Assembly: GCA_902608415.1 (NCBI GenBank)
Contig: CACLNZ010000002.1
Coordinates: forward strand, 25,861 to 89,860
Length of the DNA: 64,000 nucleotides
Direction of reading: 5' to 3'
Source of the DNA: an uncultured PS1 clade bacterium
GTDB lineage: Bacteria > Pseudomonadota > Alphaproteobacteria > MED-G09
The notes below the pieces were generated by a model. It did not search any database and was not told the origin of the DNA. It saw only the letters and a program-made list of their open reading frames with translations. The position numbers and the translations under genes were made by a program. Below are positions 19,498 through 49,201 of this stretch, piece by piece (position 1 is the stretch's first letter; every line of letters starts with the position of its first letter).

Positions 19498-20007
19498 ATG
19501 GATTCTCATTTGATATTATGGAGGCATGCGGAAGCGAGCATAGGTATAAAAGATATTAATCGTGATTTAACTGAAAAAGGAAAATTAGATGGAAAAGAAA
19601 TAGCTGAATTATTGGCAAAAAATTATACTAATATGAGTTTATTTTGTTCAAATGCTATCAGAACAATAAATACATCTAATTATTTGGTTAACATATTACC
19701 TAAAATTAAAACTTACTATTTTGATAAATTATACTTAGCTACTTCTGATGAAATGATAAATATTATCTATCAAAATTCAATTAATAAAGAAAATATACTA
19801 TGTGTTGGTCATAACCCTGGGATTCATCAATTAGCGTTGTCATTAGTCAAAAAAAACTCTATCGATCCTAAATTTGAAAAGATAAATCACAAATATCCCA
19901 CAGCAGCTCTTGCTGTTATAAAAATTAAAGATGGTAATTGGGAAAACTTATATAGCAAACAAAATGAATTAATAGATTTTATTACGCCTAAAGACTTAAA
20001 ACACTAA
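19498..20007 (+). CDS. sixA: histidine phosphatase family protein (SixA-like phosphohistidine phosphatase)
   Basis: 169 aa. LWRHAEA (RHG-type motif) near the N-terminus and VGHNPG later on. Confidence 0.6.
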   Translation: MDSHLILWRHAEASIGIKDINRDLTEKGKLDGKEIAELLAKNYTNMSLFCSNAIRTINTSNYLVNILPKIKTYYFDKLYLATSDEMINIIYQNSINKENILCVGHNPGIHQLALSLVKKNSIDPKFEKINHKYPTAALAVIKIKDGNWENLYSKQNELIDFITPKDLKH

Positions 20008-24157: not shown

Positions 24158-26701
24158 TTAATAATTAAATTTAGCTCTAACACCAATAGATCTTGGAGCT
24201 CCGTATCTTGCAAAGTTCCAAAGTGTAGCAACTGGGTTAGCAGATACTCTGAATGTTTCATCAGTAAGGTTTTTACCCCAAAGTGTAAGTGCTATATTTT
24301 CATTAACTTCCCAAGTAACAAAACCATTAACAAGCGTTCTTTCTTCGGCTTGTGTATTTCGTTTTTGCAAAATAACTGGATTGTCAGCAGTTCCACCGGC
24401 AGCATTTGCTGGTAGAGGACTTAATTCAAATTCATCACGATGATGGAAACCTAAATTATATATAACTGAACCACCTGAAGCTAAATCCTGGAAGTATGTT
24501 ACAGATAAACCAGCTGTTAATTCTGGAGAAAATGGAACACTAAGACTTGAAAGATCAGGATTAATTGTAACCCCTGAAGGTGCGCCAGCAGTTAATGTTC
24601 CTGCATCAATACCAGGTGCATATTCATCATACTCATGATCAAGAATACCTACAAATCCATCAAAACGAAGATTATCTGTTGGAACATAAGTAGCTTCAAT
24701 TTCAAAACCAGTTGCTGTTGATTCACCTTCGTTAACAGCAGCAGTTTCTTGGAATTGTGTATCACCAACTAGACGAACTTTCACAGAGTCTCTTTGAAGA
24801 CTTTCATATTCTGTTTGGAAAATAGCAGCATTCAAACGTAATCTACCTTCCATAAGATCGGCCTTAACACCAATTTCAATATTAGTATTTTCCTCATCAT
24901 TATAAGGTTTACATGTAAATGTTGATCCACAAGTTTCTGTGAAACCACCTGCAACATAACCTGTTGCGATACTTCCGTATATTAAGGTGTTTTCGTTCAT
25001 TGCATAATCAAGAACAATTCTCCATGTATCAGCTTCAAAATCCTTATTATCATCGATAGCAACACCGAAATCTTCTTTATTTAAAGGATTAGTCCAAGGA
25101 CCAAGATATTGATCAGGTGTAAAGATTAAAGCAAAACTTGCTCCATCAGGTGCATATTGACGTCTGTAGAAGTCTTTTTCATCTTCAGTATGTCTTAGTC
25201 CAACTGTTAATTTCAATTGGTCACTAATGTCATAATTGGCATCAATATAAACAGCTTTACTTGTTCTATCCTGACCAGAAGCCTGAATTTCAGCAACATT
25301 AGCAAATTGTAATGCCCCTGAAGTACCAGTAGGTGAAATAAGATCAACAAAACCTAGATTACCATATACAAGAAACTCTACATCATCAGTATAGTAAGCA
25401 GCGCCGGCAACAAAATTGAAAGGTCCATCAAATTCTGAAGTTACTCTGAATTCTTGCTGGAATTGCTCTCTTCTTGTATTTCTCGCAGCATCATATAGTG
25501 AAGTAAAAGATTCACCAGTATATGTACTATTTAATATTTCATCTTGATCTCTTTGACCTGTAATAGATTTGAGTGTGAAATTTTCAAAATTAAATGTTTG
25601 AGTTAGATAAACACCTTCAACTTCGATTTCGTGACCTCTACCAACACAAGTGAATGTGTTACATGTTTGAGATTCACCGGTAATGAATGGGTTTCCTGGG
25701 TAAGGTCCATCCCTATAACCAGGGAAACCTAAATTTGGAAATAAATAAGCTTCTGCGCCGCCGCCAGGTGTATCGTTGGCTGTAGCAGGAGCATCGCCTT
25801 GATCATCAAGTAATTCATAAGTGAAATCTGCTCTATAGAAATCATTTGGCTCATATCTAACTTTAAATTTAGCGGCAAGAACATCTTTACCACCAATTTT
25901 ACCGCCATTACCTACTGATGTATATGTGCCATCAGCATTCTTAGTAGTGCCCACATCATTAATTTGACCGCCTTCAGAATATAAAGCTGTTGACCCTGGT
26001 CCACCAAATGAAACAATACTTCCAGATGGTTTACTATTTGTCCAATAGCCTTCTTCTTCATCTTGAATAACAGATATACGTACAGCTAATTTATCTCCAA
26101 TCGGGAAATTAATTGCTGCACTTATTTTTTCAATTGATGCATCATTTGAAGCATACTGACCATAAGTTGCTTCAACATCAAAAGTTGTTTCACCAAGAAC
26201 CGGTTTTTTTGTTGTGAAAGCAATCGCACCACCAGTTGTATTCTTACCGAATAATGTTCCTTGTGGACCACGATAAATTTCAACCTGCTCCATATCAAAC
26301 ATTTCAATTGCTTGAGCTTGAACATGGTTAAATGCAAAATCATCAACAACAATACCAACAGACGGGTCTTTAGTAACAAGGATTGAAATAAAACCTGTAC
26401 CTCGCATACCACCTGCAATGGCATTAAAACCATTTTGAGGAGTCAATGTTACATTCGGCGCAAGCTGACCTAACGCAAATACATCATTTCTAAATGTATT
26501 TTCAAGCTGTTGTTCAGTAATTGTTGATACAGCTATAGGAACATCTTGTTGAGAAATATCTCTTTTAGTACCTGTAACAATAATTTCTTCAATACCAAGA
26601 CGACCGTCTGAAACAGACTCAGCATCTTGGGCATTAATTGAAGAAGTAATTCCCATTGTTAATATGAAAGAAAAAATAGTTAAATATCTAATTGAAAGCA
26701 T
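24158..26701 (-). CDS. TonB-dependent outer-membrane receptor
   Basis: 847 aa from ATG 26701 (GGAGG 7 nt upstream). It has a signal peptide ...SSINAQD, plug region EEIIVTGTKR...PQGTLFGKNTTGGAI, a long beta-barrel and C-terminal ...GVRAKFNY. Confidence 0.9.
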   Translation of the reverse strand: MLSIRYLTIFSFILTMGITSSINAQDAESVSDGRLGIEEIIVTGTKRDISQQDVPIAVSTITEQQLENTFRNDVFALGQLAPNVTLTPQNGFNAIAGGMRGTGFISILVTKDPSVGIVVDDFAFNHVQAQAIEMFDMEQVEIYRGPQGTLFGKNTTGGAIAFTTKKPVLGETTFDVEATYGQYASNDASIEKISAAINFPIGDKLAVRISVIQDEEEGYWTNSKPSGSIVSFGGPGSTALYSEGGQINDVGTTKNADGTYTSVGNGGKIGGKDVLAAKFKVRYEPNDFYRADFTYELLDDQGDAPATANDTPGGGAEAYLFPNLGFPGYRDGPYPGNPFITGESQTCNTFTCVGRGHEIEVEGVYLTQTFNFENFTLKSITGQRDQDEILNSTYTGESFTSLYDAARNTRREQFQQEFRVTSEFDGPFNFVAGAAYYTDDVEFLVYGNLGFVDLISPTGTSGALQFANVAEIQASGQDRTSKAVYIDANYDISDQLKLTVGLRHTEDEKDFYRRQYAPDGASFALIFTPDQYLGPWTNPLNKEDFGVAIDDNKDFEADTWRIVLDYAMNENTLIYGSIATGYVAGGFTETCGSTFTCKPYNDEENTNIEIGVKADLMEGRLRLNAAIFQTEYESLQRDSVKVRLVGDTQFQETAAVNEGESTATGFEIEATYVPTDNLRFDGFVGILDHEYDEYAPGIDAGTLTAGAPSGVTINPDLSSLSVPFSPELTAGLSVTYFQDLASGGSVIYNLGFHHRDEFELSPLPANAAGGTADNPVILQKRNTQAEERTLVNGFVTWEVNENIALTLWGKNLTDETFRVSANPVATLWNFARYGAPRSIGVRAKFNY

Positions 26702-26759
26702 AATGTTTCCTCCCCACAAAGTGATAGATTGCTTTTAATAATATAAATTTAGTAGTAGC

Positions 26760-28907: not shown

Positions 28908-29978
28908 TTAAGCTTTAGCTTCCAGAACAATATTTGATTCAATATCAAGACACCGTCTTTCAATATTTTCAAAACCTGCTTCATTAAGAACTGAGCGTAA
29001 TCTCTTCTCACCAGCTTGAGCGCCAAGCTGTAAACCAACTTCTTGTGCTCTTGAAGTAGGAACACATATTAAAGTTGAAAAAGAATAGTAAAGTCCAGAT
29101 TGTGAATTCAGATTATCCTTCAATTCATCATTAGCAAATGGCTCAACAAGCATAAAAGTGCCATCATCATTTAGAGTATTTAAAATAGCTTTTGATACTC
29201 CAACTGGATCGCCCATATCGTGTAAAGCATCAAATATGCATGCAAAGTCATACCCTTTTTCAGGTATATTTTTTGCATCAGAAACGGCAAATTCTATATT
29301 AGTGACCCCTTCTATCTCTGCTTTTTCTCTTGCTTTAATAATTGAAGGTTCATGGAAATCATATCCATATATTTTAGAGTTAGGAAAGGTTTTTGCCATA
29401 AGGATTGATGAAGAACCTAATCCACAACCTATATCAGCAACAGTTGCTCCAGATTCAAGCTTTTCTTTTACTCCATCAAGAGATGGTATCCAGTTTTCTA
29501 AGAGATTAGTTACATAAATAGGTCTAAAAAATCTATCCGTACCGCAGAAACAGCACTCGTGGTGTTCCTCCCATGGTCTTCCTCTACCAGTTTTAAAGAC
29601 ATCTAATGCAACATCATGAGTAGCATATTGAGCAACAATACCTTGGAAAAGTCCTTGCATGCATGTGGGTTCACCCTCATGAGCAAAGATAGCTGCTTGT
29701 TCTGGAGTTAGACTGAATTGATGATTAGCTTCGTGATAAGTAATATAACCCATAGCTGCGTTTGCTGATAACCACTCTAACAAATATCTTTCATCAAGAT
29801 TTGTTTTCGATGCAAGAGCTTCGGCAGAACATGGTCCGTTTTCATCTAGGGCAGAATATACTCCAGCTTGGTCTCCAATATATGCAACTAATAGACTTCC
29901 TGCAGCTGAAACATTTTCAAAAACTTTACCAGTTAATTCCATCAACTTTTCTTCATCAAGATCACTTTTTGCCATCAT
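28908..29978 (-). CDS. class I SAM-dependent methyltransferase with N-terminal winged-helix-like domain
   Basis: 356 aa. SAM motif VADIGCGLGSSS and DFACIFDALHD, with an N-terminal dimerisation/wHTH-like region. Confidence 0.7.
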   Translation of the reverse strand: MMAKSDLDEEKLMELTGKVFENVSAAGSLLVAYIGDQAGVYSALDENGPCSAEALASKTNLDERYLLEWLSANAAMGYITYHEANHQFSLTPEQAAIFAHEGEPTCMQGLFQGIVAQYATHDVALDVFKTGRGRPWEEHHECCFCGTDRFFRPIYVTNLLENWIPSLDGVKEKLESGATVADIGCGLGSSSILMAKTFPNSKIYGYDFHEPSIIKAREKAEIEGVTNIEFAVSDAKNIPEKGYDFACIFDALHDMGDPVGVSKAILNTLNDDGTFMLVEPFANDELKDNLNSQSGLYYSFSTLICVPTSRAQEVGLQLGAQAGEKRLRSVLNEAGFENIERRCLDIESNIVLEAKA

Positions 29979-30049: not shown

Positions 30050-31375
30050 TTAAGAGCTTTTTATAGCTAGAGCTCTAGCAAATGGCTTTCTTCCAAAATA
30101 AAATATTAAGAATGATATAGGGCCGCAAATTAAAAACATAGTAGCCATTGAAAGATCGATTGCCATTTCACTCTTAAATACTTTATCGGTAAAAAATGCT
30201 ACTGCCATTGGTCCTAATCCATAACCTGTAATATTTACCGTAAAGACATATAAACCAGAAACGACACCTCTATATTGATTAGGTGTTATATTTTGAAGTG
30301 ATGTTGCAAATAAAGCCAAGGGAAGAGTGATGAAGAAACTTGTTACGAATATTCCTATTAAAACAATATCAGAATTTAAACTCAAAAAAGTTATAGGACC
30401 AATGATTGTTAAGGCTATTGCAGTAATGATACATAAAATTATAATAGGTGGATTGAAATTTAATTTAGTCAAATACTTCTCACATACTGGTCCGGATATA
30501 ACACCTAAAGATCCTGCAAACAATGCTACAAGACCGTATTGGTCTCCAATTCTAGTATGCTCCCATCCGTGAATTCTATGCAAGAATGTAGGGACCCAAG
30601 ATTGTACTCCATATAGAAGAACGATAATAAATGCTGATCCTATTAAAAGCGGCATATAAGCCCCAATATTTTTAATGACATAGGAAAAAACCTCTTTAAT
30701 ACTCTCGTTTTCTTCTTTTTCGTCAGTTAATCCTTCTTTTCTCTCCGGATCTTTCAGTGTAAACATAAACAAGCCTAAAATTATTCCTGGTACAGCAATA
30801 ATAAGAAAAATTATTTGCCATGGTTGAATAATTATACTTTCAAGCAATGTCACAGGCTCATTATAGATTCTAAGAATTTGAGCTCCAAAAAGTAATGACA
30901 AACCTTGACCAATATATGGGCCCATTAAATATATACTCATAGGAAAACTTCTTCTTTCGACTGGAAAAAGATCTGAAATAATTGACCATGAAGCTGGAGT
31001 TAATGCTGCTTCACCTGCACCAACGCCAGATCTTGATAAAACCAGTTGCCAAGAATTTTTTGAAAAACCACAAGCTGCAGTTGCTACACTCCAAATAATT
31101 ATTCCCCCAATAAGAACCTTTACACGGTTTACCTTGTCAACAATTCTTCCGAAAGGAATACTAAAAATTACATAAGCAAGCACAAAGCCCCATCCTTGAA
31201 TAAATGAAATCTCAAAATCTGTGAGACCCATGTCTTCCTTTATAGGCACAACCAAGTAGTTGATCATTTGCCTATCAATAAAGGAAATTATATAGGCAAA
31301 TAAAAGAATTGAAGTAAAAAACCAAGCATAAATTGGTTTTGGCCATGATGTAGTATTAGTCAATTTTTTCCCCAA
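30050..31375 (-). CDS. MFS transporter
   Basis: 441 aa, about 12 TM helices, FIDRQ motif near TM1. Only TTG starts are available (31375 or 31363). Confidence 0.8.
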   Translation of the reverse strand: MGKKLTNTTSWPKPIYAWFFTSILLFAYIISFIDRQMINYLVVPIKEDMGLTDFEISFIQGWGFVLAYVIFSIPFGRIVDKVNRVKVLIGGIIIWSVATAACGFSKNSWQLVLSRSGVGAGEAALTPASWSIISDLFPVERRSFPMSIYLMGPYIGQGLSLLFGAQILRIYNEPVTLLESIIIQPWQIIFLIIAVPGIILGLFMFTLKDPERKEGLTDEKEENESIKEVFSYVIKNIGAYMPLLIGSAFIIVLLYGVQSWVPTFLHRIHGWEHTRIGDQYGLVALFAGSLGVISGPVCEKYLTKLNFNPPIIILCIITAIALTIIGPITFLSLNSDIVLIGIFVTSFFITLPLALFATSLQNITPNQYRGVVSGLYVFTVNITGYGLGPMAVAFFTDKVFKSEMAIDLSMATMFLICGPISFLIFYFGRKPFARALAIKSS

Positions 31376-31433: not shown

Positions 31434-32123
31434 TTATTTTTCCCAACTCTTTACCAAGTATATTAAAGAACGAGACATTACTTTTCTAAATTTATTAGCT
31501 CTTTGAAGATAATTTTGTCCGTCTGGTGTAGCTAATGAGCTATCAAGGTTAGACATGGCTTCTTCAAGGGAAGAACCATTAATAACAACATAATGAGTTC
31601 GATTATCAACGCCAGTAAATGTATCTGCAAATACAGTAATACTACCATTTGGGTTAGCACTGCTTAGAAACTTACCAAGACTTTTTACAAAGGCAGCACT
31701 ATCTTTTGCTTTTATATCAATCAAAATTCCTACTGGAGCATTTGGGTCTTGTTCACCAGCTGAAAGAATAGGCGTACCAGCACCATTAAGTACCCAAGTA
31801 ACATTTTGATTTAATGTAGACAAAAGTGCTTGGCCTTCTGCGGAACCATTTACAATATTGTTATTTTTTTCGAATTGATCAGGTCCTGAATGTTCACCAA
31901 CCATACAATGAGTTATATTGTTCTCTCCGTTTAATGGAAATGCATAAAGCCTATGAGTAGACATACCATCTGAGGAAGATGAATTTAAAAAATCATCAAA
32001 TGCACTAACAACATTATTAGCTGTTTCAAGAGCATTAAAGCAATAATATGCATGTAAAGGTGCTGCCTTTACATTGCCCGTTAAAATAAAAAACGCGAAA
32101 GCAATAGTTATAATAAATTTCAT
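31434..32123 (-). CDS. secreted protein, divergent two-repeat alpha+beta member of the array (paralog 1)
   Basis: 229 aa with signal peptide MKFIITIAFAFFILTGNVKA. It has two halves with the same strand-helix-strand-strand-helix-strand periodicity, and AAGGAG upstream. Confidence 0.6.
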   Translation of the reverse strand: MKFIITIAFAFFILTGNVKAAPLHAYYCFNALETANNVVSAFDDFLNSSSSDGMSTHRLYAFPLNGENNITHCMVGEHSGPDQFEKNNNIVNGSAEGQALLSTLNQNVTWVLNGAGTPILSAGEQDPNAPVGILIDIKAKDSAAFVKSLGKFLSSANPNGSITVFADTFTGVDNRTHYVVINGSSLEEAMSNLDSSLATPDGQNYLQRANKFRKVMSRSLIYLVKSWEK

Positions 32124-32147
32124 ATTTTTCTCCTTTATATAAAAATT

Positions 32148-32939
32148 TTAATTTGGTCTGTTATAAACTTTTTCATGCATTAGCATTGGGTCACTGCATT
32201 GAGCATATTCAGTTTCATATTCATCTCGAAATCTCCAACCACCCTCTGCAGCCTCAACTTTTTTAGATTGCATTACTGACTCCATATCAGGAAATAAGAC
32301 AACGTGAGCAAAAGTTGGATAATTTGCTCCTCCGAGCAGGGGTACCATTGTTAACCAACCAATTGCACCATTTGGATTTTCTTTCATTCTTGAAGCTGCC
32401 TTATTATGAAAGGCTATTAAATCATCAGGGCTTTTACCGTCACGAATACTACACCAATTCCATTCAGCATATCGACTATCCCCTTCATTTAAAGCTTCTT
32501 CATTTGCATAATTAAAATAAGCAGAATTCATCTTCATGTAACAAGTAGAAACCTCACCCCACTCATTAAGTATTTCTTGACCCTCTTTTGTTTCCGTTAA
32601 TTTATCCCAGCCCTTTCCATGAGTCTCGAAAGGAGCAGCCATAAATTCTACAAAATCATAAGATGGTGGATTGTTAAAATCACCATGTTGGAAATGAGGT
32701 GTTTGAAGAGCAATAAATGTTTCAACTTTATTCTTTTTAGCCCAGTCAAAATATCTTTCATTGAGAGCTTCATATCGCTCCATTGAAATACCTTCATTTA
32801 ATCTACAAATATTTGCTTGAATTGCAAAAGCAGCATCTGATGTAATCCCTGCTCCAAGTTTATTGTCTTGAGCATTAATAGAATTGCTAATTAAGAATAA
32901 TGCAAATACTGCACTAAATAGTAATATATTTTTTTTCAT
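32148..32939 (-). CDS. secreted tandem-duplicated alpha+beta (ABM/Dabb-like) protein, uncharacterised family (paralog 2)
   Basis: 263 aa with signal peptide ...SNSINAQ. It shares YDF, GKGWDK, WNWC, GAIGW, FAH, GGW and AQC blocks with the three upstream paralogs. Confidence 0.7.
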   Translation of the reverse strand: MKKNILLFSAVFALFLISNSINAQDNKLGAGITSDAAFAIQANICRLNEGISMERYEALNERYFDWAKKNKVETFIALQTPHFQHGDFNNPPSYDFVEFMAAPFETHGKGWDKLTETKEGQEILNEWGEVSTCYMKMNSAYFNYANEEALNEGDSRYAEWNWCSIRDGKSPDDLIAFHNKAASRMKENPNGAIGWLTMVPLLGGANYPTFAHVVLFPDMESVMQSKKVEAAEGGWRFRDEYETEYAQCSDPMLMHEKVYNRPN

Positions 32940-32954
32940 TAATTTTTCCTTTTA

Positions 32955-33731
32955 TTATTGGGGTAATCTATTAAGCACTTGCACATCATAAAGTTCTTCT
33001 CCTCTACAAGTTGCATATTGTTTTTCATAATCGCGGTAATGTTTCCAACCTCCTTGAGCGATTGTTTTTTGATGCTTCATCGATGCTTTATTATCTGGAA
33101 AGATAATAATATGTGCAAATTCTCCAGGTGCACTTGCTCCTCCAAGCCGAGGAATAATACCAGCCCATCCTATAATACCTTGGTCATTACCCTCTAAATT
33201 TTTTGCCATTTCAGAATGTTTTTGTAAAACTTCTTCAGCACTAACATTATCATTAAGAGTACACCAATTCCAGGTTGCAACTCTTTCGTCAGCTTTTGCT
33301 AAAGCATCTTCATCTGACCACAAAGTAACGCCTGTTCCCATTTTCGGATAGCAATCAGCTGCAGCCTGCCATTGTGCATTTAGCTTCTGACCTTCTTTAG
33401 AGTTTAACCACAAATCCCAAGCTTCACCAGAAGTTTGGTGAGTAGAGCCTAATATTTCTAAGAAATCATATGTTAGCGGATTGCCAGCTGTTGCATGAGA
33501 AAATAATGGAAAATGACGAACATAGAATGTTTCAACATTATTCTTTTTTGACCATTTCACATAATCTTCTGTAACAGAGTTATATTCTTTTAATGATACA
33601 CCTTCTTTAAGTTTGCATACATTAACTTGAACATTAGAAACATTTGGAAGCTCTTCATAGTGATCGTCTGAGTAGACATCAAAAGAAAAGACAAAAAATC
33701 CAAAAAGAAAAAAGGTTAATAATTTTTTCAT
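32955..33731 (-). CDS. secreted tandem-duplicated alpha+beta (ABM/Dabb-like) protein, uncharacterised family (paralog 3)
   Basis: 258 aa with a signal peptide. Half 1 runs VNVCKLKEGVS...ADCY and half 2 runs WNWCTLNDNVS...ATCRG. Confidence 0.7.
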   Translation of the reverse strand: MKKLLTFFLFGFFVFSFDVYSDDHYEELPNVSNVQVNVCKLKEGVSLKEYNSVTEDYVKWSKKNNVETFYVRHFPLFSHATAGNPLTYDFLEILGSTHQTSGEAWDLWLNSKEGQKLNAQWQAAADCYPKMGTGVTLWSDEDALAKADERVATWNWCTLNDNVSAEEVLQKHSEMAKNLEGNDQGIIGWAGIIPRLGGASAPGEFAHIIIFPDNKASMKHQKTIAQGGWKHYRDYEKQYATCRGEELYDVQVLNRLPQ

Positions 33732-33744
33732 ATTTATTCTCCTA

Positions 33745-34518
33745 TTAACTATTTGGATTATTAATTACTTGTTCAATCATAAAGGCTTCACCGCGACATG
33801 TTGCAAAATCTTTTTGATAATCTCTATAATCTTTCCAACCACCGTCAGATTGAGCTTGTTGATATATTTGAGCGGCTTCAACATTTGGATAAACCGCAAT
33901 ATGCGCAAAATCGCCTGGAGCTTGATCAGTTCCTATTCTTGGAAATAAATTTACCCAGCCAATAATTCCTAATGAATCTTCTTCAAGAATTTTTGCTCTT
34001 CTATTATGCTCAGCAATTAAGTCTTCGTATGATACGCCTTCATTTAAAGAACACCAATTCCATGCAACAATTCTATCATTATCTTTATTAATTTCATCTT
34101 GGTTTACATATAAAGGTGCAGCAGCGCCTTGCTTTACTCTGCAATCAGCAAGTTTTTGCCATTTTTCGTTTAATTTTTGTCCATCGCTAGTACCAAGCCA
34201 TTTATCCCAACCTTTACCGCTGACGGAATGCGTTGACCATAAAAGTTCCATAAAATCATATCCTGCATCAAACCAACTATCTTGTGGGTATAAAGGTGTT
34301 TGTCTTGCAAAAAATAATTCTACATCATGTTTTCTTGACCATTTAACATAATCATCGATCATTTCATCATATTGCTTAATTGAAGTATTTCCTTTCAAAG
34401 TACAAAGTTGAACTTGAAGGTTAAAAACTTCTGCTTCGTCAGATGAATGATCATCAGCAAAGACAAAATTATTAAAGCCAAAAAAAGCTATAAATCCAAA
34501 AGTTATATATTTTTTCAT
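33745..34518 (-). CDS. secreted tandem-duplicated alpha+beta (ABM/Dabb-like) protein, uncharacterised family (paralog 4)
   Basis: 257 aa with a signal peptide. By eye roughly half of its residues are identical to paralog 3 (DYVKWS, GQKLN, ADC, WNWCSLNEGVS, GIIGW, FAHI, GGWKDYRDY, ATCRGE). Confidence 0.7.
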   Translation of the reverse strand: MKKYITFGFIAFFGFNNFVFADDHSSDEAEVFNLQVQLCTLKGNTSIKQYDEMIDDYVKWSRKHDVELFFARQTPLYPQDSWFDAGYDFMELLWSTHSVSGKGWDKWLGTSDGQKLNEKWQKLADCRVKQGAAAPLYVNQDEINKDNDRIVAWNWCSLNEGVSYEDLIAEHNRRAKILEEDSLGIIGWVNLFPRIGTDQAPGDFAHIAVYPNVEAAQIYQQAQSDGGWKDYRDYQKDFATCRGEAFMIEQVINNPNS

Positions 34519-34535
34519 AATCGTATTCTCCTTAA

Positions 34536-35306
34536 TTACTCATCACCATTACGTAATAAATTTGTTGTGTAAATTCTTGGACTATCACAATCTAAAACTG
34601 AGCCCCAAGTATCCTGAAGAACCGTATTACCAGTTTGATAACCAGCTTGCTTAGCTTTTCCCATTTCTTCATAATTAGACCAACCTGCGCCAAGTTTAAC
34701 ATCCCAATCAACATCTAATTCATTACCAGCATCAGGAACAAATATAGCAATAAGCGGATCAGCGCCTGTTGTTTCTATATATTTGTTGAACTCTCCTGCT
34801 GCTTTCATTAAATCAGTCATGCTTTTACCATCTCTAAATTTACAATTTGCTAATTGAAAAGGATTATTCTTAGTTGTGTCTTGATCCCAATCAACTTGTC
34901 TTGCTGGTATTACAGCGAATAAAGAGCGTGGACTACATGTAGATACTTCATTAAATTTTTGGCCTATTGTTTGTTCGCCCTCTTGAACCCAACCTTCAAT
35001 ATCTTTTCCCCAGGTTTCAAAATTAGGGCTGAATCCAAACCATATGTAATCGAATGATAGCATTCCTTGGCTTACTGCAAATGGTGTCATTGACCAAGCT
35101 GAATATTTGTGGCCCTTCCTATCAGCCCACTTATCCCAATCTTTAACAACTTTATTTAAATCACTTACAGTTTTTCCATCATTGAAAGAACAAGCTAGCA
35201 TTTCTACTGCTGCAGGGCCTATTGGTTGATGATCATCTGCGTAAGCAAGATTAGTAATTGACAAAAAAATTAGCGATAAAGCAAAAAAATTTATAGATTT
35301 ATTCAT
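34536..35306 (-). CDS. secreted tandem-duplicated alpha+beta (ABM/Dabb-like) protein, uncharacterised family (paralog 5, most divergent of the four)
   Basis: 256 aa with signal peptide ...NLAYADD. It has the same four Cys positions (LACSF, STCS, ANCKF, LDCDS), and GGGAG upstream. Confidence 0.65.
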   Translation of the reverse strand: MNKSINFFALSLIFLSITNLAYADDHQPIGPAAVEMLACSFNDGKTVSDLNKVVKDWDKWADRKGHKYSAWSMTPFAVSQGMLSFDYIWFGFSPNFETWGKDIEGWVQEGEQTIGQKFNEVSTCSPRSLFAVIPARQVDWDQDTTKNNPFQLANCKFRDGKSMTDLMKAAGEFNKYIETTGADPLIAIFVPDAGNELDVDWDVKLGAGWSNYEEMGKAKQAGYQTGNTVLQDTWGSVLDCDSPRIYTTNLLRNGDE

Positions 35307-35350
35307 TAGAAACTCCCTTAATTAAACCCAAGAGGAGAAACTGACACTAT

Positions 35351-35365
35351 TGAGAATCATTATCA
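35351..35365. promoter_or_regulatory. near-consensus Fur box (TGAGAATCATTATCA)
   Basis: 14 of 15 positions match the 7-1-7 Fur dyad TGATAAT-N-ATTATCA. The 19-mer 35346-35364 matches 15/19 to GATAATGATAATCATTATC. It lies 45 nt upstream of the first array gene. Confidence 0.55.
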
Positions 35366-35533
35366 ACTAGTTTTTTCTTCATATTGTCTTTAAGTTACAC
35401 ACATTGATCATAAAAAAAGCTTTTCTATACATAATACTGTGGATAACTTTTATTTTTGATACTAAGCCTATTATTTTATTTCCTATACCAGGTTTTTTAC
35501 CTAAAATTCTATTTATTAAATAGGGAGAGAAAG

Positions 35534-36073
35534 ATGGAAAATTTAAGAAGAATTATTACTGGTCATAATGAGGATGGAAAATCGGTAATTTCTATTGATG
35601 GTCCACCTGCTAGAATATTAGGTGAGGATGTTGGGGGATTATTTGAAATTTGGAATACTGATGGAGAGCAAATAAATTCTTTAGATGATAAAGATAGAGC
35701 CGATATCGATGTTATTTTATCGCCCCCTGAAAATGGAACAAAGTTTCGATACTTTGCTATCAAACCAACACCTGAAGGTATACCAAGAGAAAAACTTGAA
35801 GAAGCTACTGCTAGGGCATTTGAATTAATGGGCGCAGCTCATGAGAGAGTTGATACATCAAGACACCCTGCAATGCATAAAACAAAAACTATTGATTACA
35901 TAATTTTATTAAACGGGGATGTAACTCTATTACTTGACGAAGATGAAGTTAGGCTAAAACCTTTCAATGTTGTTGTACAAAGAGGTACAAATCATGCATG
36001 GGTTAATAATGGCAATGAACCAGCATTGCTTATAGCAGTATTAATAGATAGCGATTTGAAAGATAAAGCTTAA
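35534..36073 (+). CDS. cupin domain protein
   Basis: From ATG 35534 (GGGAGAG upstream), 179 aa. The C-terminal ...VVVQRGTNHAWVNNG block is typical of small cupins. Confidence 0.6.
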   Translation: MENLRRIITGHNEDGKSVISIDGPPARILGEDVGGLFEIWNTDGEQINSLDDKDRADIDVILSPPENGTKFRYFAIKPTPEGIPREKLEEATARAFELMGAAHERVDTSRHPAMHKTKTIDYIILLNGDVTLLLDEDEVRLKPFNVVVQRGTNHAWVNNGNEPALLIAVLIDSDLKDKA

Positions 36074-37422
36074 GAATTTTTAAAATTACGATATTCTTCG
36101 AGCCTTTTTTTATTATCGTTTGGGTGAGTCCATTCTTCAGTTATTTTAGGCTCAACTTTAAGATCATTAGGAATCCTATTTAAACCAATTATCTTATCTA
36201 CCTGCTCATGCCAATGATAAATTCTTGCTTCTTGATAGCTCAAAGGAACACCATCAAAAACATATGAGTCAACTGCCTTTTGGATCCAACCACCAAAGTG
36301 AAGGTCTTCATCTAGAACTTTATTGAAACCATCAATCGCAATATCCCAAATTGCTGGTCTTTTACCTTTTCCCCAATGTGGAGCTACCCAAAAAACTTCA
36401 AAAATACATTCATCAATAGCTGTAGGCCACCACAATAGGATTGGGAAACCTTTTTCCGACATAGGGGATACAAAATTAGGAACTAAATTATAGGATTGAG
36501 TACATGTCCTTGCAATATAACCACATGTTTCGATTTCTGGTCTATTATCTTCAACCTTATAAGTTTGGTTTTTATAATATTTAGAAGGTTTACCATTTTT
36601 AACATTAGTTTGTTTAAGGGCATCAGGATTTGCTTTTAAAGCAACTTCAGGAAGGTCAGGAAAGGTTCTGCTTGGGGCAACCATTCTACCGTGTCCATTT
36701 GGGTAAAATGTGTTTACATTTCCAGTATAATCTAAACCCGTGTGGACAGTTTCAGGATGTATAGACTGAACATGATAGACTTCCATGTTTGCTTCCAAAG
36801 CAATTTTCCAATTACATTTTAGTTTATAAGTATAGTGATCAATGAGACTTAAATTCTCAAATTGAAATTCTTGAACTTCATCATATATTACGCCAAGATT
36901 ATCTTTTAGGCTTCCTGCATCTAAATCAAAATTCACAAAAATTAAATTTCCTAAAAGTTCAACCTTAACCTTGTGAAGGCTTCTGCATGAATCGTCAAAA
37001 TCAACGAAATCTTTTGGATCTCTTTTTCCAATCAAATTCCCGTCATGATCATATGTCCAACCATGATACCCACAAACTAATTTATCTGATTGGCCAAATT
37101 CATCTAAAACTATTGCTGCACCTCGATGTCTACACATATTATAAAATGCAGTTACATTCTCTTTGCTTTTTCTAATCAAAATAACAGGTTGTCCTGCCTT
37201 ATCCCATAATTTATAACTTCCAACCTCAGGAATTTCCTCAAGATGCCCGGCAAGTAACCAGCTTTGCTTCCACAAATATTCCTTTTCAAGATCAAAAAAC
37301 TCTTTGTCTGTGTAGCGTTTGCCAGGTAGATCAGGGAGCTTAGGAAAATCCTTTGGAGGAGATTTTCTTTTTCTCTCATAATCTATTAGATCTTTGAGTT
37401 GATCAATTTGTTCTTGATTCAC
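36070..37422 (-). CDS. Rieske [2Fe-2S] non-haem iron oxygenase, alpha-subunit type
   Basis: 450 aa. Rieske motif CRHRGAAIV-x-CGYHGWTY and mononuclear iron motif NMEVYHVQSIH. Confidence 0.85.
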   Translation of the reverse strand: MNQEQIDQLKDLIDYERKRKSPPKDFPKLPDLPGKRYTDKEFFDLEKEYLWKQSWLLAGHLEEIPEVGSYKLWDKAGQPVILIRKSKENVTAFYNMCRHRGAAIVLDEFGQSDKLVCGYHGWTYDHDGNLIGKRDPKDFVDFDDSCRSLHKVKVELLGNLIFVNFDLDAGSLKDNLGVIYDEVQEFQFENLSLIDHYTYKLKCNWKIALEANMEVYHVQSIHPETVHTGLDYTGNVNTFYPNGHGRMVAPSRTFPDLPEVALKANPDALKQTNVKNGKPSKYYKNQTYKVEDNRPEIETCGYIARTCTQSYNLVPNFVSPMSEKGFPILLWWPTAIDECIFEVFWVAPHWGKGKRPAIWDIAIDGFNKVLDEDLHFGGWIQKAVDSYVFDGVPLSYQEARIYHWHEQVDKIIGLNRIPNDLKVEPKITEEWTHPNDNKKRLEEYRNFKNS

Positions 37423-37512
37423 ATCTAGCCCCTAAAAATATATTGAATGTATTATAAAATTATCGTGTAGTAAAATATGATTTAGCAAAATAAATCTATA
37501 TATGGAGAGAAA

Positions 37513-37920
37513 ATGATAAAAGGCGGTTGTTTATGCGGGAAAATTAGATACGAATTTAAACAAGAAGATGTAATTTCAGCGGGAAATTGCCATTGCAAAG
37601 ATTGTCAAAAAGCAACAGGTAGCGGAAAGGCTACAATTATTTATATTCCTTCAGAAAGCTTAAAAATAAATGATGATTACAAAATCTATTCTGTAATTGG
37701 TTATGAGGGATCTAGTGTAAATAGAGGTTTTTGTCCTAATTGTGGTTCACCCATAATCAGTTATGTTTCAGAGCAACCTGATGTCAAATTTATAAAAGCT
37801 GGTAGTTTAGATGATTCTTCTTGGCTTAAAATAGAATCAAGTTTTTGGAGTGATACTGCAAATCATTGGGATCCAGTAGATGAAAACCTACCAACATTTG
37901 AAAAAAATCCACCACTTTAA
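37513..37920 (+). CDS. GFA (glutathione-dependent formaldehyde-activating/CENP-V) family protein
   Basis: 135 aa. GGCLCG, CHCKDCQK and CPNCGS zinc-binding cysteine pattern. Confidence 0.8.
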   Translation: MIKGGCLCGKIRYEFKQEDVISAGNCHCKDCQKATGSGKATIIYIPSESLKINDDYKIYSVIGYEGSSVNRGFCPNCGSPIISYVSEQPDVKFIKAGSLDDSSWLKIESSFWSDTANHWDPVDENLPTFEKNPPL

Positions 37921-37937
37921 TATTGAAAGGAAAAACT

Positions 37938-38723
37938 ATGAACTTTGAAACAATATTATATGAAAAGAAAAATAATTCAGCTTTAATTACATTAAATAGA
38001 CCTAAAAAATTGAACGCATGGACTCCTTTCATGGCTGAAGAACTTGCTTCAGCTATAAATGAAGCTAATAAAGATAATTCAGTTGGAGCAATAGTTATGA
38101 CAGGTGCAGGAAAAGGTTTCTGCGCAGGTGCAGATATTGAAGAAACTTTTCAAACAAGAATAGACGGAAAAGATCCAGGTAATGATACTCAATCAGGTAG
38201 TGGGGGTATGCCCAAGCATGTCAATTGGGTCAAATTAATTAGGGAGTCAAAGCCAATGATTGCTGCAGTGAATGGTGCAGCTGTTGGTATAGGAATTACA
38301 ATGGTTTTACCATTTGATATTATTATAGCGTCTGAAAAGGCAAAGTTTGGAATGTTCTTTATTCAAATGGGATTAGTGCCTGAATTGGCAAGTAGTCATT
38401 TTTTAGTACAAAGAATGGGTTTTGGGAAAGCAAGTGAAATGTGTTTATCCGGTAGATTGGTGAAAGCTGAGGAAGCTAAAGAATCTAATTTAGTTGATTT
38501 TATAACATCAGAAGATGAACTTTTATCTGAGGCAATAAGTAAGGCTGATGAAATAGGGGCTAATCCTAAACCGCAGCTAAAAATGGTAAAAGAACTTTTA
38601 AGCCTTAATGGAAGCGAGGTTGACTTAGAAAAAGCACAAGAACGTGAAAGTGCTTTATTAAGGGAATGTTGGAAAACTAAAGAACACAAAGAAGCGGTCA
38701 AAAAATTTTTAGAAAAGACCTAA
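37938..38723 (+). CDS. enoyl-CoA hydratase/isomerase family protein
   Basis: From ATG 37938. LNRPKKLNA, GAGKGFCAGADI and AAVNGAAVGIG crotonase motifs. Confidence 0.85.
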   Translation: MNFETILYEKKNNSALITLNRPKKLNAWTPFMAEELASAINEANKDNSVGAIVMTGAGKGFCAGADIEETFQTRIDGKDPGNDTQSGSGGMPKHVNWVKLIRESKPMIAAVNGAAVGIGITMVLPFDIIIASEKAKFGMFFIQMGLVPELASSHFLVQRMGFGKASEMCLSGRLVKAEEAKESNLVDFITSEDELLSEAISKADEIGANPKPQLKMVKELLSLNGSEVDLEKAQERESALLRECWKTKEHKEAVKKFLEKT

Positions 38724-38727
38724 TAAT

Positions 38728-39243
38728 ATGTTCAATTCAAACAAACCTATTATACAAATTGCTTATGGGGTGGAAGATATTGTCACAGAAGCAGAAAAAT
38801 GGTCAAAAAGATTTAATATTGGGCCTTTTTATTGCAATGAGCATATAGAAGTTTCCGAATCTCGAATTAATGGTATTGAAGAAAAATTTGATCATTCATC
38901 TGCATATGGGTGGAAAGAAAACTTTATGATCGAACTTATAAGTGATCACTCAAAGGTAAATTCATATAATAATGGAATTCATCATGTTGCTTGGATTGCT
39001 GAAGACTTTGCACAAGAAAGCGAAGAATTAAAAAATCAGGATTGTAAAGAAGTTCTTTTTGCTAGAGCTGGTGATAGGAATGGAATGAGATTTTCTTGGT
39101 TTGATCCAGGAAAAGAAATTGGCCATTTTTATGAAATTTATGACAATAATGATTCATTAAAGAATTTTTATTCATATATTTACAAAGCGTCCTTAGAATG
39201 GGATGGTACTAATCCTGTAAGGCATATTTCAGAAATTGGTTAG
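38728..39243 (+). CDS. VOC (glyoxalase/bleomycin-resistance/dioxygenase) family protein
   Basis: 171 aa. IHHVAW and FYEIY blocks in paired beta-alpha-beta-beta-beta modules; the assignment is tentative. Confidence 0.5.
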   Translation: MFNSNKPIIQIAYGVEDIVTEAEKWSKRFNIGPFYCNEHIEVSESRINGIEEKFDHSSAYGWKENFMIELISDHSKVNSYNNGIHHVAWIAEDFAQESEELKNQDCKEVLFARAGDRNGMRFSWFDPGKEIGHFYEIYDNNDSLKNFYSYIYKASLEWDGTNPVRHISEIG

Positions 39244-39252
39244 GAGGAAATT

Positions 39253-40206
39253 ATGACATTAGTTACTGTATTAAGCGCAAGTGGAAGACCTGGTCTAGCC
39301 CAGGTTCGACAACTTAAAAAAGCTGGATATGAAGTAAGAGGAACAACCAGAAATCCTGAAAGATTAAGTCAATTTGATGATATTGAAGTGGTTAGCGCTG
39401 ATTACAATGATCCGGACTCAGTTTATGAAGCATGTTTAGGAGCTGATTCAGTTTTCTATACTAGACCTTCATTTGAAGAATCACATAAAGCTCTTGATTT
39501 CGCAGCCACAGTAGGTTCTGCAGCAAAAAGGGCCAATGTAAGAAGACTTATTTATAATACTTGCTGTTGGGGTCCTCCAGAGGAATTGGGTGATGTAGGT
39601 CAAGCTGGCTATGATAGCGTTAAATTAATGATTAATACTTTAAAACAAGCTGGAGTCCAAACTACCACATTTCAACCAGTTCTATTTATGGATAATCTTT
39701 TAACTGATTGGGCCAGAGAAGATATAATGAATAACAACTTATATACATATCCTCACAACCCTAATCTTGAAGCAAGTTGGATATGTCTTGATGATGTAGC
39801 AAAATTTATGATTGCTGCCATTGATAGAGATGACCTAATTGGTAGGAATATAAATATTGGTGGACCAGAAGTATTTACTCCTCCAAGAGTTGCCGATCTT
39901 CTGTCAGGTTACTTTGGAAAACCAATCAAATATGAAGAGTTAAGTTTAGTTGATTTCTCTAATAGACTTTATGATATCTTTTTTGCTGAAATTGATGAAG
40001 ATATGAGAGGTGGCCGATCTGAAAATAGAGACGCCTTTATTGAAAGTATGTCAGATTTTTATAAATTTAATAATGTATCTGATCATAAGCCTTTCAAAGT
40101 TGATATGGCGCCTGTTTTAAAAGAAATACCAATTGAACTTACACCTTTTAGTGAATGGATTAGCCAACAAGATTGGAATGAAAAAGTTGATACGAAAGCA
40201 GGTTAA
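39253..40206 (+). CDS. NmrA-like NAD(P)-binding protein
   Basis: 317 aa. N-terminal VLSASGRPG Rossmann-like motif and NmrA/SDR-a5 layout. Confidence 0.65.
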   Translation: MTLVTVLSASGRPGLAQVRQLKKAGYEVRGTTRNPERLSQFDDIEVVSADYNDPDSVYEACLGADSVFYTRPSFEESHKALDFAATVGSAAKRANVRRLIYNTCCWGPPEELGDVGQAGYDSVKLMINTLKQAGVQTTTFQPVLFMDNLLTDWAREDIMNNNLYTYPHNPNLEASWICLDDVAKFMIAAIDRDDLIGRNINIGGPEVFTPPRVADLLSGYFGKPIKYEELSLVDFSNRLYDIFFAEIDEDMRGGRSENRDAFIESMSDFYKFNNVSDHKPFKVDMAPVLKEIPIELTPFSEWISQQDWNEKVDTKAG

Positions 40207-41258
40207 GAAAAGCTTTTATTAACTTGGCGAAGCTTTTTAAGGCCTGGAGAAAGATCCTTTTTCTTAAGTTGGTTCAAAGGTTTTTCAGTTGTAAGAAGTG
40301 TATCGTGAAGATCTTCTTCGTTTTGATCTAAATATATTAAACCGGTAATAATTTCTCCTTTGTCACGTGAGTCATTAATTTTACCAATTGCTTTTCTTCT
40401 ACTACCTGGATCATAACTTTTATTCAATTTATGAAGCACCATCTTTGAACCATCATGAACATTAACTTCAATTGATTTCCCTTCTCCATAGTTAACAGAA
40501 ATTTCTTCATTTTCTGGAATTACATCAAGGAATCCAACAGCTTCATTATGCTCTCTAAAATATTCATAGCTCTTAGTTGACTGAGCGTGATTATTAAAGG
40601 TAACGCAAGGTGAAATTACATCTATAAATGCAAAACCTTTATAACTAAGCGCTGCTCTAATTAAAGGTATCAATTGATCTTTATCTCCAGAAAAACTACG
40701 TGCAACAAATCCTGCTCCTAATTGAATAGCAAGAGCAGCTAGATCAATTGACTCAAACATGTTATCTACGCCTTTTCTACTCTTTGATTCTTTGTCATTA
40801 GTGGCTGAAAATTGACCTTTAGTTAAACCATATGTTCCATTATTTTCGCATATATAAACCATATTTAATCGTCTACGCATAATATGGCAAAATTGACCTA
40901 ATCCAATTGATGCCGTATCACCATCGCCAGATACACCTAGATAGTATAAATCTCTATTAGCTAAATTAGCTCCAGTAGCAACTGATGGCATTCTTCCATG
41001 CACGGAGTTAAAACCATGAGATTTATTTAAGAAATATGTAGGTGTTTTCGAAGAACATCCAATGCCAGAGAGTTTTGCTAACCTGTGAGCAGGTATAGAT
41101 AATTGAAAACATGCTTCAATAATAGCAGATGATACCGAGTCATGACCGCATCCTGCACATAAAGTAGATAAAGCCCCCTCATAATCTCTTCTTGTTAAAC
41201 CAAGTTTATTTTTTGGTAAATTAGGGTGTCTAGCTATTGGTTTTTTTATAAAACTCAT
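40203..41258 (-). CDS. korB: 2-oxoacid:ferredoxin oxidoreductase, beta (TPP-binding) subunit
   Basis: 351 aa. CAGCGHDS, GIGCSS and GDGD...NNGTYGLTKGQ TPP-binding blocks. Confidence 0.85.
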   Translation of the reverse strand: MSFIKKPIARHPNLPKNKLGLTRRDYEGALSTLCAGCGHDSVSSAIIEACFQLSIPAHRLAKLSGIGCSSKTPTYFLNKSHGFNSVHGRMPSVATGANLANRDLYYLGVSGDGDTASIGLGQFCHIMRRRLNMVYICENNGTYGLTKGQFSATNDKESKSRKGVDNMFESIDLAALAIQLGAGFVARSFSGDKDQLIPLIRAALSYKGFAFIDVISPCVTFNNHAQSTKSYEYFREHNEAVGFLDVIPENEEISVNYGEGKSIEVNVHDGSKMVLHKLNKSYDPGSRRKAIGKINDSRDKGEIITGLIYLDQNEEDLHDTLLTTEKPLNQLKKKDLSPGLKKLRQVNKSFS

Positions 41259-41261
41259 TTT

Positions 41262-44872: not shown

Positions 44873-44904
44873 TCAATAATCCCCCCTGACAATTGAGTAA
44901 ACCG

Positions 44905-44925
44905 AATCAATTTTAAAAATTGATT
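44905..44925. other. 10-bp inverted repeat AATCAATTTT-A-AAAATTGATT upstream of the korAB operon
   Basis: Read directly. It lies between the sucB stop and the GltD-like start. Confidence 0.25.
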
Positions 44926-44939
44926 TTCTAACTAATAAA

Positions 44940-44967
44940 ATTGACTTTATCTCTAGTCAATCAAAAT
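44940..44967 (-). terminator. weak AT-rich hairpin, possible sucAB terminator
   Basis: The minus strand reads ATTGACT-AGAGATAA-AGTCAAT followed by TTTATT. The 7-bp stem is AT-rich, so the prediction is weak. Confidence 0.3.
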
Positions 44968-45025
44968 ACGATTTAAAAGAAGTTAAATTACAAATGATAT
45001 GATCTATAAAATATTTTTTATTTGA

Positions 45026-46177: not shown

Positions 46178-46180
46178 TTT

Positions 46181-49015: not shown

Positions 49016-49201
49016 AGTTTTGTTAAAACTACTTTTACTCTTTTTACCTTTATTTTTATTACTAGAGTTTATTTCAGGTTTCATCCGAAGGCCTTTATAA
49101 TAGTCCTCCCCCTGAACCATAAAAATTCCAAAATTTCTACAATTAATAAATCTGACTGCTGTAATAGTCAATAATCTTCGGGAACTGTGACAAATGATTA
49201 T

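Follow-up and report, generated by a model that had tools for sequence, protein, structure and literature searches.

This analysis concerns an array of five genes, named here g1–g5, at positions 31434-35306 on the minus strand of a 64-kb stretch of PS1-clade DNA (further referred to as the window; GC content ~33%). A preliminary description had reported five co-directional minus-strand genes, 13–24 nt apart and each preceded by a Shine–Dalgarno (SD) sequence, and the open reading frame (ORF) coordinates agree with it: the intergenic spacers from g1 to g5 are 24, 15, 13, and 17 nt, and a GGAG/GGAA-type SD sequence is located 6–10 nt upstream of the ATG in all five genes. As detailed below, there is strong support for the array encoding periplasmic proteins with predicted Sec export, four of which (g2–g5) constitute an undescribed family, called here family A, and one (g1) represents its very distant relative, family B. 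The genes of the array are as follows (the slash denotes the predicted signal-peptide cleavage site).

31434-32123, minus strand: g1, 229 aa, family B, type b1; ...VKA/APLH; Cys 28 and 73
32148-32939, minus strand: g2, 263 aa, family A, type a2; ...INA/QDNK (Gln-type, lacking the N-terminal ATCUN motif for binding of Cu(II) or Ni(II)); four Cys
32955-33731, minus strand: g3, 258 aa, family A, type a1; ...VYS/DDHY; Cys 39/127/157/242; the protein modeled
33745-34518, minus strand: g4, 257 aa, family A, type a4; ...VFA/DDHS; four Cys
34536-35306, minus strand: g5, 256 aa, family A, type a3; ...AYA/DDHQ; Cys 39/124/155/240

The same region with full synteny is present in QCOV01000003 (OCS116 cluster bacterium AG-435-F03) and CACANC010000019 (PS1 clade), where g3 has 96% protein identity. 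Scans for terminators and promoters within the array yielded no excess over shuffled sequences. A foreign origin was considered on the grounds of base composition and rejected, the GC content of the array being 0.34 against the window mean of ~0.33.

Two protein families in the array

The products of the four genes g2–g5 had been described as clear paralogs with common motif blocks. This is true for g2, g3, and g4, which are mutual paralogs with 33–45% identity (blastp E from 1e-49 to 1e-83), but g5 is a remote homolog: it is 20–25% identical to g2–g4, lacks the WNWC, GIIGW, and FAH blocks, and is related to them according to the profile–profile comparison (hhalign probability 98%, E 6.8e-14), its four Cys (39/124/155/240) occupying positions that match those of g3 (39/127/157/242). 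The claim that g1 is much more divergent and has the same layout also stands in part, as the duplicated topology is the same in the structural models (see below), but the four Cys are not shared: g1, assigned to the separate family B, has two Cys (28 and 73) at positions unlike those of family A. With signal peptides removed, families B and A align over both halves (78% probability, E 1.9e-5), and hence family B probably is a very remote relative of family A.

Family B has features of its own. A Thr–His pair is repeated at the start of the β3-strand in both halves (His72, His177), and residues His57, His72, His177, Arg58, and Arg175 are invariant in 16 sequences with at least 49% identity; this His/Arg set, without a counterpart in family A, is a possible metal or heme site.

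In agreement with the preliminary description, which could not place the proteins in any characterized family, scanning the five proteins against Pfam and NCBIfam with a cutoff of E ≤ 10 yielded only noise, and sequence searches of PDB with profiles of 13, 16, and 91 sequences yielded no match. In particular, ABM (Pfam PF03992) matches none of the five proteins at E ≤ 10 and none of the 91 relatives at E ≤ 1. The sole curated sequence family touched by family A is NIPSNAP (Pfam PF07978), with weak matches in four out of 91 relatives (best E 6.8e-5) and in none of the five window proteins at E ≤ 10. A word-indexed search retrieved close relatives only; when 1.84 billion cluster representatives were searched exhaustively with a profile, 411 of them matched at E ≤ 1e-3, of which 210 reached E ≤ 1e-10. 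Among the matches listed, 92 are of 240–285 aa, mostly 247–267 aa, and almost all of these carry a signal peptide along with four Cys, located at about positions 40, 124, 153, and 238. The clusters with the array proteins contain hundreds of metagenomic member sequences. Carriers of family A are the PS1/OCS116 clade and the gammaproteobacterial Porticoccaceae and Azotimanducaceae, i.e., marine planktonic bacteria known mainly from single-cell and metagenome-assembled genomes (MAGs). No description of family A was found in the literature searched.

In the 91 full-length relatives, averaging 29% identity, the four Cys are invariant. Besides them, only the Ala at position −1 relative to the cleavage site, Asp49, Pro75, Pro194, and Gly197 are conserved in at least 90% of sequences; no His, Asn, Trp, Tyr, or Arg column is conserved family-wide in this alignment at the 90% cutoff, and no conserved 7–10-mer was seen in broad family alignments. 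As no His, Tyr, or Arg of a catalytic type is conserved throughout the family, a binding scaffold of variable specificity is mildly favored over a conserved enzyme.

Fold, disulfides, and export

According to the AlphaFold2 (AF2) model of g3, based on a 13-sequence alignment (pLDDT 82.3, pTM 0.76), the β-α-β-β-α-α-β arrangement occurs twice in the protein, with disorder limited to the signal peptide and the few residues that start the mature chain. The model of g1 is weaker (pLDDT 66), with the same topology. In the Foldseek comparison of g3 with PDB, the top match is 2pgc (E 7e-8, TM-scores 0.60/0.73), followed by 3mcs and 3f44, and the probability is 1.0 for many members of the dimeric α+β barrel superfamily; coproheme decarboxylase/HemQ, chlorite dismutase (Cld), dye-decolorizing peroxidase (DyP), and sulfur oxygenase reductase rank lower, with TM-scores of 0.40–0.57. 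The top matches of g1 are the same as those of g3, with E from 4e-8 to 9e-8. Moreover, the two halves are recognizably homologous both in family A (hhalign of half 1 against half 2 in a 95-sequence alignment: 99.2% probability, E 6e-20, the two Cys and the conserved Pro of each half being in register) and in family B (90.6% probability, E 1.3e-6). Hence, both earlier proposals, that each protein is an internal duplication and that it is a fused pseudo-dimer of ferredoxin-like (ABM/Dabb-type) barrels, hold well, the former by the comparison of the halves and the latter by the AF2 topology and the Foldseek matches to fused dimeric α+β barrels; the models strongly support each protein being a single-chain pseudo-dimer of two ferredoxin-like halves with the dimeric α+β barrel fold.

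The ferredoxin-like sheet is all-antiparallel with the 4-1-3-2 strand order, and the end of β1 adjoins the start of β4. These are the places where the family A cysteines are found, namely, the C-terminal end of β1 (C39, C157) and the N-terminal start of β4 (C127, C242). A 129-aa single-domain relative of family A, encoded at positions 6934-7323 (minus strand) of locus L010, has its own signal peptide and exactly two Cys, at the β1-end and β4-start positions, and probably represents the barrel in an unfused, homodimeric form. The invariance of the four Cys, together with the retention of one such pair in the single-domain relative, argues for one disulfide per half in family A, predicted to link the end of β1 to the start of β4. 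Thus, of the earlier suggestion that four invariant Cys on the first and last strands form two disulfides, the positions are as described in g2–g5, but g1 has only two Cys and the pairing is a prediction.

All five proteins carry the Sec-type features that had been described as a typical signal peptide in every product, i.e., an n-region with Lys, a hydrophobic core (mean Kyte–Doolittle hydropathy 1.8–3.0), and an AXA-type site at residues 20–23, and such features are also present in essentially all 91 full-length relatives. Export as lipoproteins or via the Tat pathway was considered and rejected, as neither a lipobox nor a twin-arginine motif was found in any of the five.

After the conserved −1 Ala, His occupies position +3 in 46 out of 91 relatives, compared with the background His frequency of 1.9%; among these 46, position +1 is Asp or Glu in 44, and position +2 is Pro in none. 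Gln at position +1 is found in 33 out of 91 relatives (36%). In a crude control, none of 40 other secreted-looking ORFs from the same loci had His at +3. Cleavage is predicted after Ser or Ala and before DDH in g3, g4, and g5, and after Ala and before QDN in g2, and the Asp-X-His and Gln types are intermixed across many subfamilies as well as within this array. By the definition of the ATCUN Cu(II)/Ni(II) motif (PMC12509749), with His at position 3 and a residue other than Pro at position 2, the sequences of g3, g4, g5, and of the 46 relatives fit at the predicted signal-peptidase site. If cleaved as predicted, the mature N-terminus Asp-X-His would therefore form an ATCUN-type Cu/Ni motif; acidic and His-rich residues follow it.

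Gene order, operator, and genomic context

Ten PS1-clade loci were compared: the window, L001–L008, and L021. Three features of the window outside the array are needed for this comparison.

35350-35366, minus strand: Fur-box-like (7-1-7) 17-bp palindrome TTGATAATGATTCTCAA, 45 nt upstream of the ATG of g5
30050-31375, minus strand: Spinster-type major facilitator superfamily (MFS) transporter, Pfam MFS_1, 58 nt 3' of g1; the next gene in all PS1-clade loci
24158-26719, minus strand: TonB-dependent receptor, 4.7 kb downstream

The gene order is the same in all ten loci: A genes (one to four) come first, B genes (one or two) second, and the MFS gene last, the minimal variant a1-b-MFS being found in L005 and L006. 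The MFS protein is similar to HnSpns from Hyphomonas neptunium (PDB 6e8j; E 1.7e-31, residues 13–396) and to human SPNS2 (E 3e-19, residues 22–404), and by sequence it belongs to the Spinster (Spns) subfamily. This family carries lipid-like or amphipathic substrates, the direction of transport in bacteria being unresolved (PMC9440201).

The 7-1-7 core of the palindrome, TGATAATGATTCTCA at 35351-35365, has one mismatch to the model TGATAATnATTATCA and is the sole site with at most one mismatch in 64 kb, the chance expectation at no more than two mismatches being 2.1 sites. No match to the classical 19-mer Fur box was found at up to three mismatches, and the palindrome fits it in 14 out of 19 positions. 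Hence, the near-consensus Fur box previously noted directly upstream of the array is near consensus with respect to the 7-1-7 model, but not to the classical 19-mer. The palindrome is retained at the same position 5' of the first A gene in L001–L005 and L007, with zero to two mismatches (it is perfect in L004), and is present in seven out of eight PS1-clade loci; the A genes behind it are only 44–77% identical. Such conservation in front of diverged genes constitutes a phylogenetic footprint and supports iron-responsive control, with the palindrome as a putative Fur-type operator. The link to iron proposed in the preliminary description is thus backed by a conserved operator, but one confined to the PS1 clade; neither a Fur nor a RirA gene was identified in the window. 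There is strong support for the PS1-clade genes forming one unit that comprises the putative Fur-type operator, A genes in one to four copies, B genes in one or two, and the Spinster-type MFS gene.

Two other sites were observed. A second, weaker Fur-like site TGATAAATATTATCT with two mismatches is located at 19754-19768, in a stretch of ~1.2 kb with a single long ORF (19498-20007), for which Pfam gave no match. A perfect DnaA-box-like nonamer TTATCCACA lies at 35438-35446 (minus strand), between the divergent cupin gene (see below) and the palindrome, within GTTATCCACAG(T/A)ATTATGTATA; it is kept in the same intergenic region of L003–L007, and may be a second operator or a part of the cupin promoter.

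At the strain level, the unit is a mosaic, as seen from the nucleotide identity to the window.

L002 and L003, flanks and g2–g3: 88–97%
L002 and L003, g4–g5: 57–70%
L003, g1: 49–68%
L008: g2 absent; g3 slot ~59%; MFS gene 55–64%

Ten A types and six B types, differently combined, are present in the ten loci (at the 70% identity cutoff), and type a1 (g3) is found in eight of them. Thus, the A and B genes are exchanged as single-gene cassettes between near-identical strains. The MFS and TonB-dependent receptor genes each have two allele classes, and these co-vary: class 2 is found in L008 and L021, which for both genes are 60% identical to each other and 42–54% identical to the class of the window, the backbone of L008 being otherwise more than 90% identical to the window. 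Since their allele classes co-vary, the receptor and the MFS transporter may work on the same substrate, as this comparison of sequences suggests. In L001 (19627-20774) and L005 (19802-20780), a second TonB-dependent receptor paralog, ~52% identical to that of the window, directly follows the first one; the window has an SMP-30/gluconolactonase gene in this slot.

Taking all this into account, it is firmly supported that family A is a new, sizeable family of duplicated dimeric α+β barrels with predicted Sec export and stapled by predicted disulfides, which in the PS1 clade follows a conserved iron-type operator and is accompanied by a distant sister family and by a Spinster-type MFS.

The other neighbors of the array are listed below.

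28908-29978, minus strand: S-adenosylmethionine-dependent methyltransferase with an Rv2258c-like winged helix-turn-helix domain, 71 nt after the MFS gene
35534-36073, plus strand: cupin of ~179 aa counted from the Met of MENLRR..., divergent, sharing the intergenic region with the operator
36070-37422: Rieske oxygenase alpha subunit; best matches, sub-threshold, to GbcA, CntA, and stachydrine-demethylase-like structures

The positions previously given for the MFS gene (directly downstream), the TonB-dependent receptor (~5 kb away), and the Rieske oxygenase (nearby) agree with these coordinates. The transcription unit may end with the methyltransferase gene, with some uncertainty, as this gene is absent from L021. 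Relatives of the cupin and the methyltransferase are uncharacterized or known only from natural-product pathways; a cupin homolog also adjoins the A gene in the gammaproteobacterial locus L012. In the region 36070-39243, the Rieske oxygenase gene adjoins genes for a glutathione-dependent formaldehyde-activating (GFA) protein, enoyl-CoA hydratase (ECH), and glyoxalase; GbcA is glycine-betaine monooxygenase, CntA is carnitine monooxygenase, and by sequence the region has the look of a module that oxidatively demethylates some methylated compound. Further along, at 40203-49171, 2-oxoacid:ferredoxin oxidoreductase-like genes (POR/TPP) and a Fer4/pyridine-nucleotide-disulfide oxidoreductase gene are located beside the 2-oxoglutarate dehydrogenase E1/E2 genes. 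The hemB gene is 2.5 kb from the array.

Outside the PS1 clade, MAGs of Porticoccaceae, Azotimanducaceae, and further Pseudomonadales have a single A gene, accompanied by neither a B gene, nor a Spinster MFS, nor a Fur-like site. Its neighbors vary between the loci.

L009, L019, L015: resistance–nodulation–division (RND) pumps adjoining the A gene
L011, L013: EamA immediately upstream of the A gene
L012, L014: another MFS, with cupin and ECH homologs
L010: GFA as a neighbor of the A gene
L016, L018: TetR and aldehyde dehydrogenase beside the A gene

In L015, a gene for a SOUL heme-binding protein (8867-9472, minus strand) lies divergently beside the A gene, with the RND pump (HlyD and AcrB) just upstream. 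The sole locus from one metagenome scan, L026, on a high-GC contig, has two tandem A genes (1247-2941; 260 and 254 aa, Gln-type N-termini) between rpoC and rpsL-rpsG-fusA. No recurrent partner gene was found among the compared loci outside the PS1 clade. Given these heterogeneous contexts, the family is self-sufficient, its tandem duplication is recurrent, and its association with iron and the MFS is lineage-specific.

Possible functions and comparison with known systems

We tentatively favor the reading, possible yet open to considerable doubt, that the A and B proteins are iron-responsive, non-catalytic periplasmic ligand carriers operating between the TonB-dependent receptor and the MFS transporter. 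When iron is scarce, the operator would be derepressed and the periplasm would fill with barrels, which would serve as carriers, the pocket between the sheet and the helices holding a small ligand that is amphipathic or bears a metal; in about half of the family, including g3–g5, a Cu(II)/Ni(II)-type metal might also be held at the free Asp-X-His amino terminus. The carriers would hand the ligand between the receptor of the outer membrane and the Spinster-type transporter of the inner one, import being favored. The A and B paralogs and their alleles would provide different ligand specificities, and this would explain the shuffling of cassettes between strains. A more specific version, which we consider quite unlikely, is that the A–B–Spinster operon and the co-varying receptor form a new iron-responsive uptake route, where the carriers replace classical periplasmic binding proteins and ferry an amphiphilic metallophore, perhaps a lipid-tailed marine siderophore or a Cu/Ni chelate caught with the ATCUN tail, to a lipid-type MFS importer, cassette exchange tuning which chelates a strain can pirate.

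Several points weigh against the carriers. Three unrelated genes separate the receptor from the MFS gene, the receptor resembles siderophore receptors in the plug domain only, a scan of its promoter revealed no convincing Fur-like site, and the co-variation of the receptor and the MFS reflects essentially one replacement event. The palindrome also fits the looser TGA-N9-TCA pattern of RirA, and its regulator might be Fur or RirA; the signal-peptide cleavage site is a prediction. Outside the PS1 clade, the A genes, single or paired, reside in heterogeneous contexts without B genes, the Spinster MFS, or the Fur box, and therefore a transport role, if real, may be lineage-specific. Finally, ABM-type cofactor-less oxygenases also have no strongly conserved catalytic residues, so that the weak conservation of family A is compatible with an enzyme as well.

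Such enzymes, e.g., periplasmic cofactor-independent ABM-like monooxygenases, isomerases, or tautomerases, could act on small aromatic or quinone-like compounds entering via the TonB-dependent receptor and feed the catabolic island of Rieske oxygenases, cupin, ECH, glyoxalase, and GFA, the paralogs having different substrates. The closest folds, which include 3mcs, 3f44, PenE, an anthrone-oxidase-like protein, and WhiE-ORFI, the oxygenase-rich surroundings of the array, the recurrence of cupin, ECH, and GFA homologs beside the A gene in the gammaproteobacterial loci L010, L012, and L014, and the scarcity of conserved catalytic residues typical of ABM enzymes all conform to this alternative. 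We nevertheless find it rather unlikely, as no ABM match is seen in Pfam even at E ≤ 10, Asp49 is the sole conserved polar residue, the neighboring oxygenases are cytoplasmic whereas the array proteins are exported, catabolic enzymes seldom have a Fur-type operator or alleles exchanged like cassettes, and the family also occurs in non-catabolic contexts. Another alternative starts from the N-terminus: the proteins might be periplasmic Cu/Ni buffers or metallochaperones, with the ATCUN site as the main element and the barrel as a scaffold, induction under iron limitation reflecting copper–iron cross-talk or the supply of non-iron metalloenzymes. The family-specific enrichment of X-X-His at the predicted mature terminus, followed by acidic and His-rich residues, points in this direction, and a precedent is known, as disordered N-terminal regions rich in His have functional importance in envelope proteins, namely in copper handling by PcoB (PMC12509749). 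However, the motif is present in 51% of the family only, with Gln starting another 36%, the types are mixed and g2 has no motif, strong conservation is seen in the barrel and not in the tail, and no copper or nickel genes are nearby, all of which makes a buffering role unlikely. The transporter could also work in the opposite direction, the array proteins being accessory periplasmic partners of exporters, accepting or delivering an amphipathic metabolite whose efflux would run through the Spinster-type MFS in the PS1 clade and through RND or EamA transporters in Gammaproteobacteria. Bacterial Spns homologs have been proposed to be broad-specificity efflux pumps (PMC9440201), and RND (L009, L019, L015), EamA (L011, L013), and LysE and MFS (L012, L014) genes lie near the A gene; at the same time, the MFS allele co-varies with the TonB-dependent receptor, an outer-membrane importer, which indicates uptake, transporters are common and none is adjacent in four out of nine independent contexts, and the operon has no outer-membrane efflux component, and we thus consider the export role improbable.

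The preliminary description had put forward heme oxygenases of the IsdG type. In a broader form, the array proteins would bind or degrade heme or other tetrapyrroles, similarly to IsdG/MhuD, HemQ/Cld, or EfeB, to obtain iron from heme. The structural likeness to HemQ, Cld, and DyP, the iron-type operator, hemB at 2.5 kb, the SOUL gene beside the A gene in L015 and ctaA near it in L011, and the invariant His57, His72, and His177 of family B could be taken to speak for such a role. But the Asn/Trp/His triad of IsdG, with His as the axial heme ligand, and the proximal His of Cld and DyP are required in those families, and family A has no conserved His, Asn, or Trp, which disfavors a heme-oxygenase-like function; moreover, the TM-scores to the heme enzymes are 0.40–0.50 compared to 0.60–0.73 for 2pgc, the signal peptides are of the Sec type, EfeB being exported via Tat, and the heme-related neighbors are not recurrent, and a heme role thus appears very improbable. 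Least credible to us, indeed hardly so at all, is that the array proteins confer immunity or act as decoys in the periplasm, for example against bacteriocins, toxins of the contact-dependent kind, or phage proteins entering via the TonB-dependent receptor, the gene turnover reflecting an arms race. Tandem small exported paralogs of no recognized family, copy-number variation and allele replacement at the strain level, and a variable TonB-dependent receptor nearby would fit it, but none of 26 loci has an adjacent gene for a toxin, a secretion system, or a mobile element, a1 is kept in eight out of ten PS1-clade loci, the iron-type operator is conserved, and some contexts are housekeeping ones.

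If the carrier model is true, streamlined marine bacteria would have a new means of taking up complexes of iron or other trace metals, and bacterial Spinster transporters would gain their first physiological context; the iron-type operator, the ATCUN-like N-terminus, and the Spinster-type partner are testable features. Single-gene cassette exchange in near-identical strains is in itself a clean case of fine-scale variation of the flexible genome. The fold is known; the databases and literature searched contain no description of the family, of its predicted export and disulfides, of the N-terminal motif, of the A–B–Spinster operon, or of the cassette behavior.

Characterized members of the dimeric α+β barrel superfamily are, to our knowledge, largely cytoplasmic, and family A adds to it an exported branch with predicted disulfide bonds. 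The closest structures, 2pgc (an uncharacterized marine-metagenome protein from JCSG), 3f44 (Lactobacillus acidophilus), and 3mcs (Fusobacterium nucleatum), the latter two being fused ABM-like proteins annotated as putative monooxygenases, are, like the array proteins, single-chain duplicated barrels, of ~205–220 residues; however, the identity is 11–15%, with no sequence-profile match even at E ≤ 10, and the array proteins additionally have the signal peptide, two conserved predicted disulfides, and, in half of the family, the predicted N-terminal Asp-X-His. The three structures offer no clue to the mechanism. NIPSNAP belongs to the same fold class (the dimeric α+β barrel clan) and is related to family A at the superfamily level at most; NIPSNAP proteins are not known to be Sec-exported and disulfide-bonded.

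Among systems with known roles, EfeB/YcdB-type DyP from the Fur-regulated EfeUOB system, HemQ, and Cld consist of two ferredoxin-like α+β halves, as do the array proteins, and EfeB is likewise periplasmic and iron-regulated. These enzymes bind heme via a conserved proximal His and have ~300 aa or more, EfeB being exported via Tat; in contrast, the array proteins are smaller, have no conserved His, carry Sec-type signal peptides, and are accompanied by an MFS transporter instead of an EfeU/Ftr1-type permease. IsdG/IsdI/MhuD and the ActVA-Orf6-type ABM proteins (PF03992) share the dimerizing ferredoxin-like half-barrel with a pocket between the sheet and the helices, and IsdG is iron-regulated, but they are cytoplasmic homodimers of ~100-aa subunits, and the array proteins neither match ABM in Pfam nor conserve the Asn, Trp, and His of IsdG. 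The siderophore binders of the FhuD/FepB type hand ligands from TonB-dependent receptors to permeases, and RhtX/FptX are siderophore permeases of the MFS type, although such MFS permeases are not known to need a periplasmic binder. The array differs from FhuD/FepB in the fold, which is not that of class III substrate-binding proteins, and in having a Spinster-type MFS partner instead of an ABC transporter. Despite these differences, the logic of FhuD/FepB-type systems is shared with the role proposed for the array, with an iron-regulated operon, a periplasmic binder, a permease, a TonB-dependent receptor nearby, and strain-diversified alleles.

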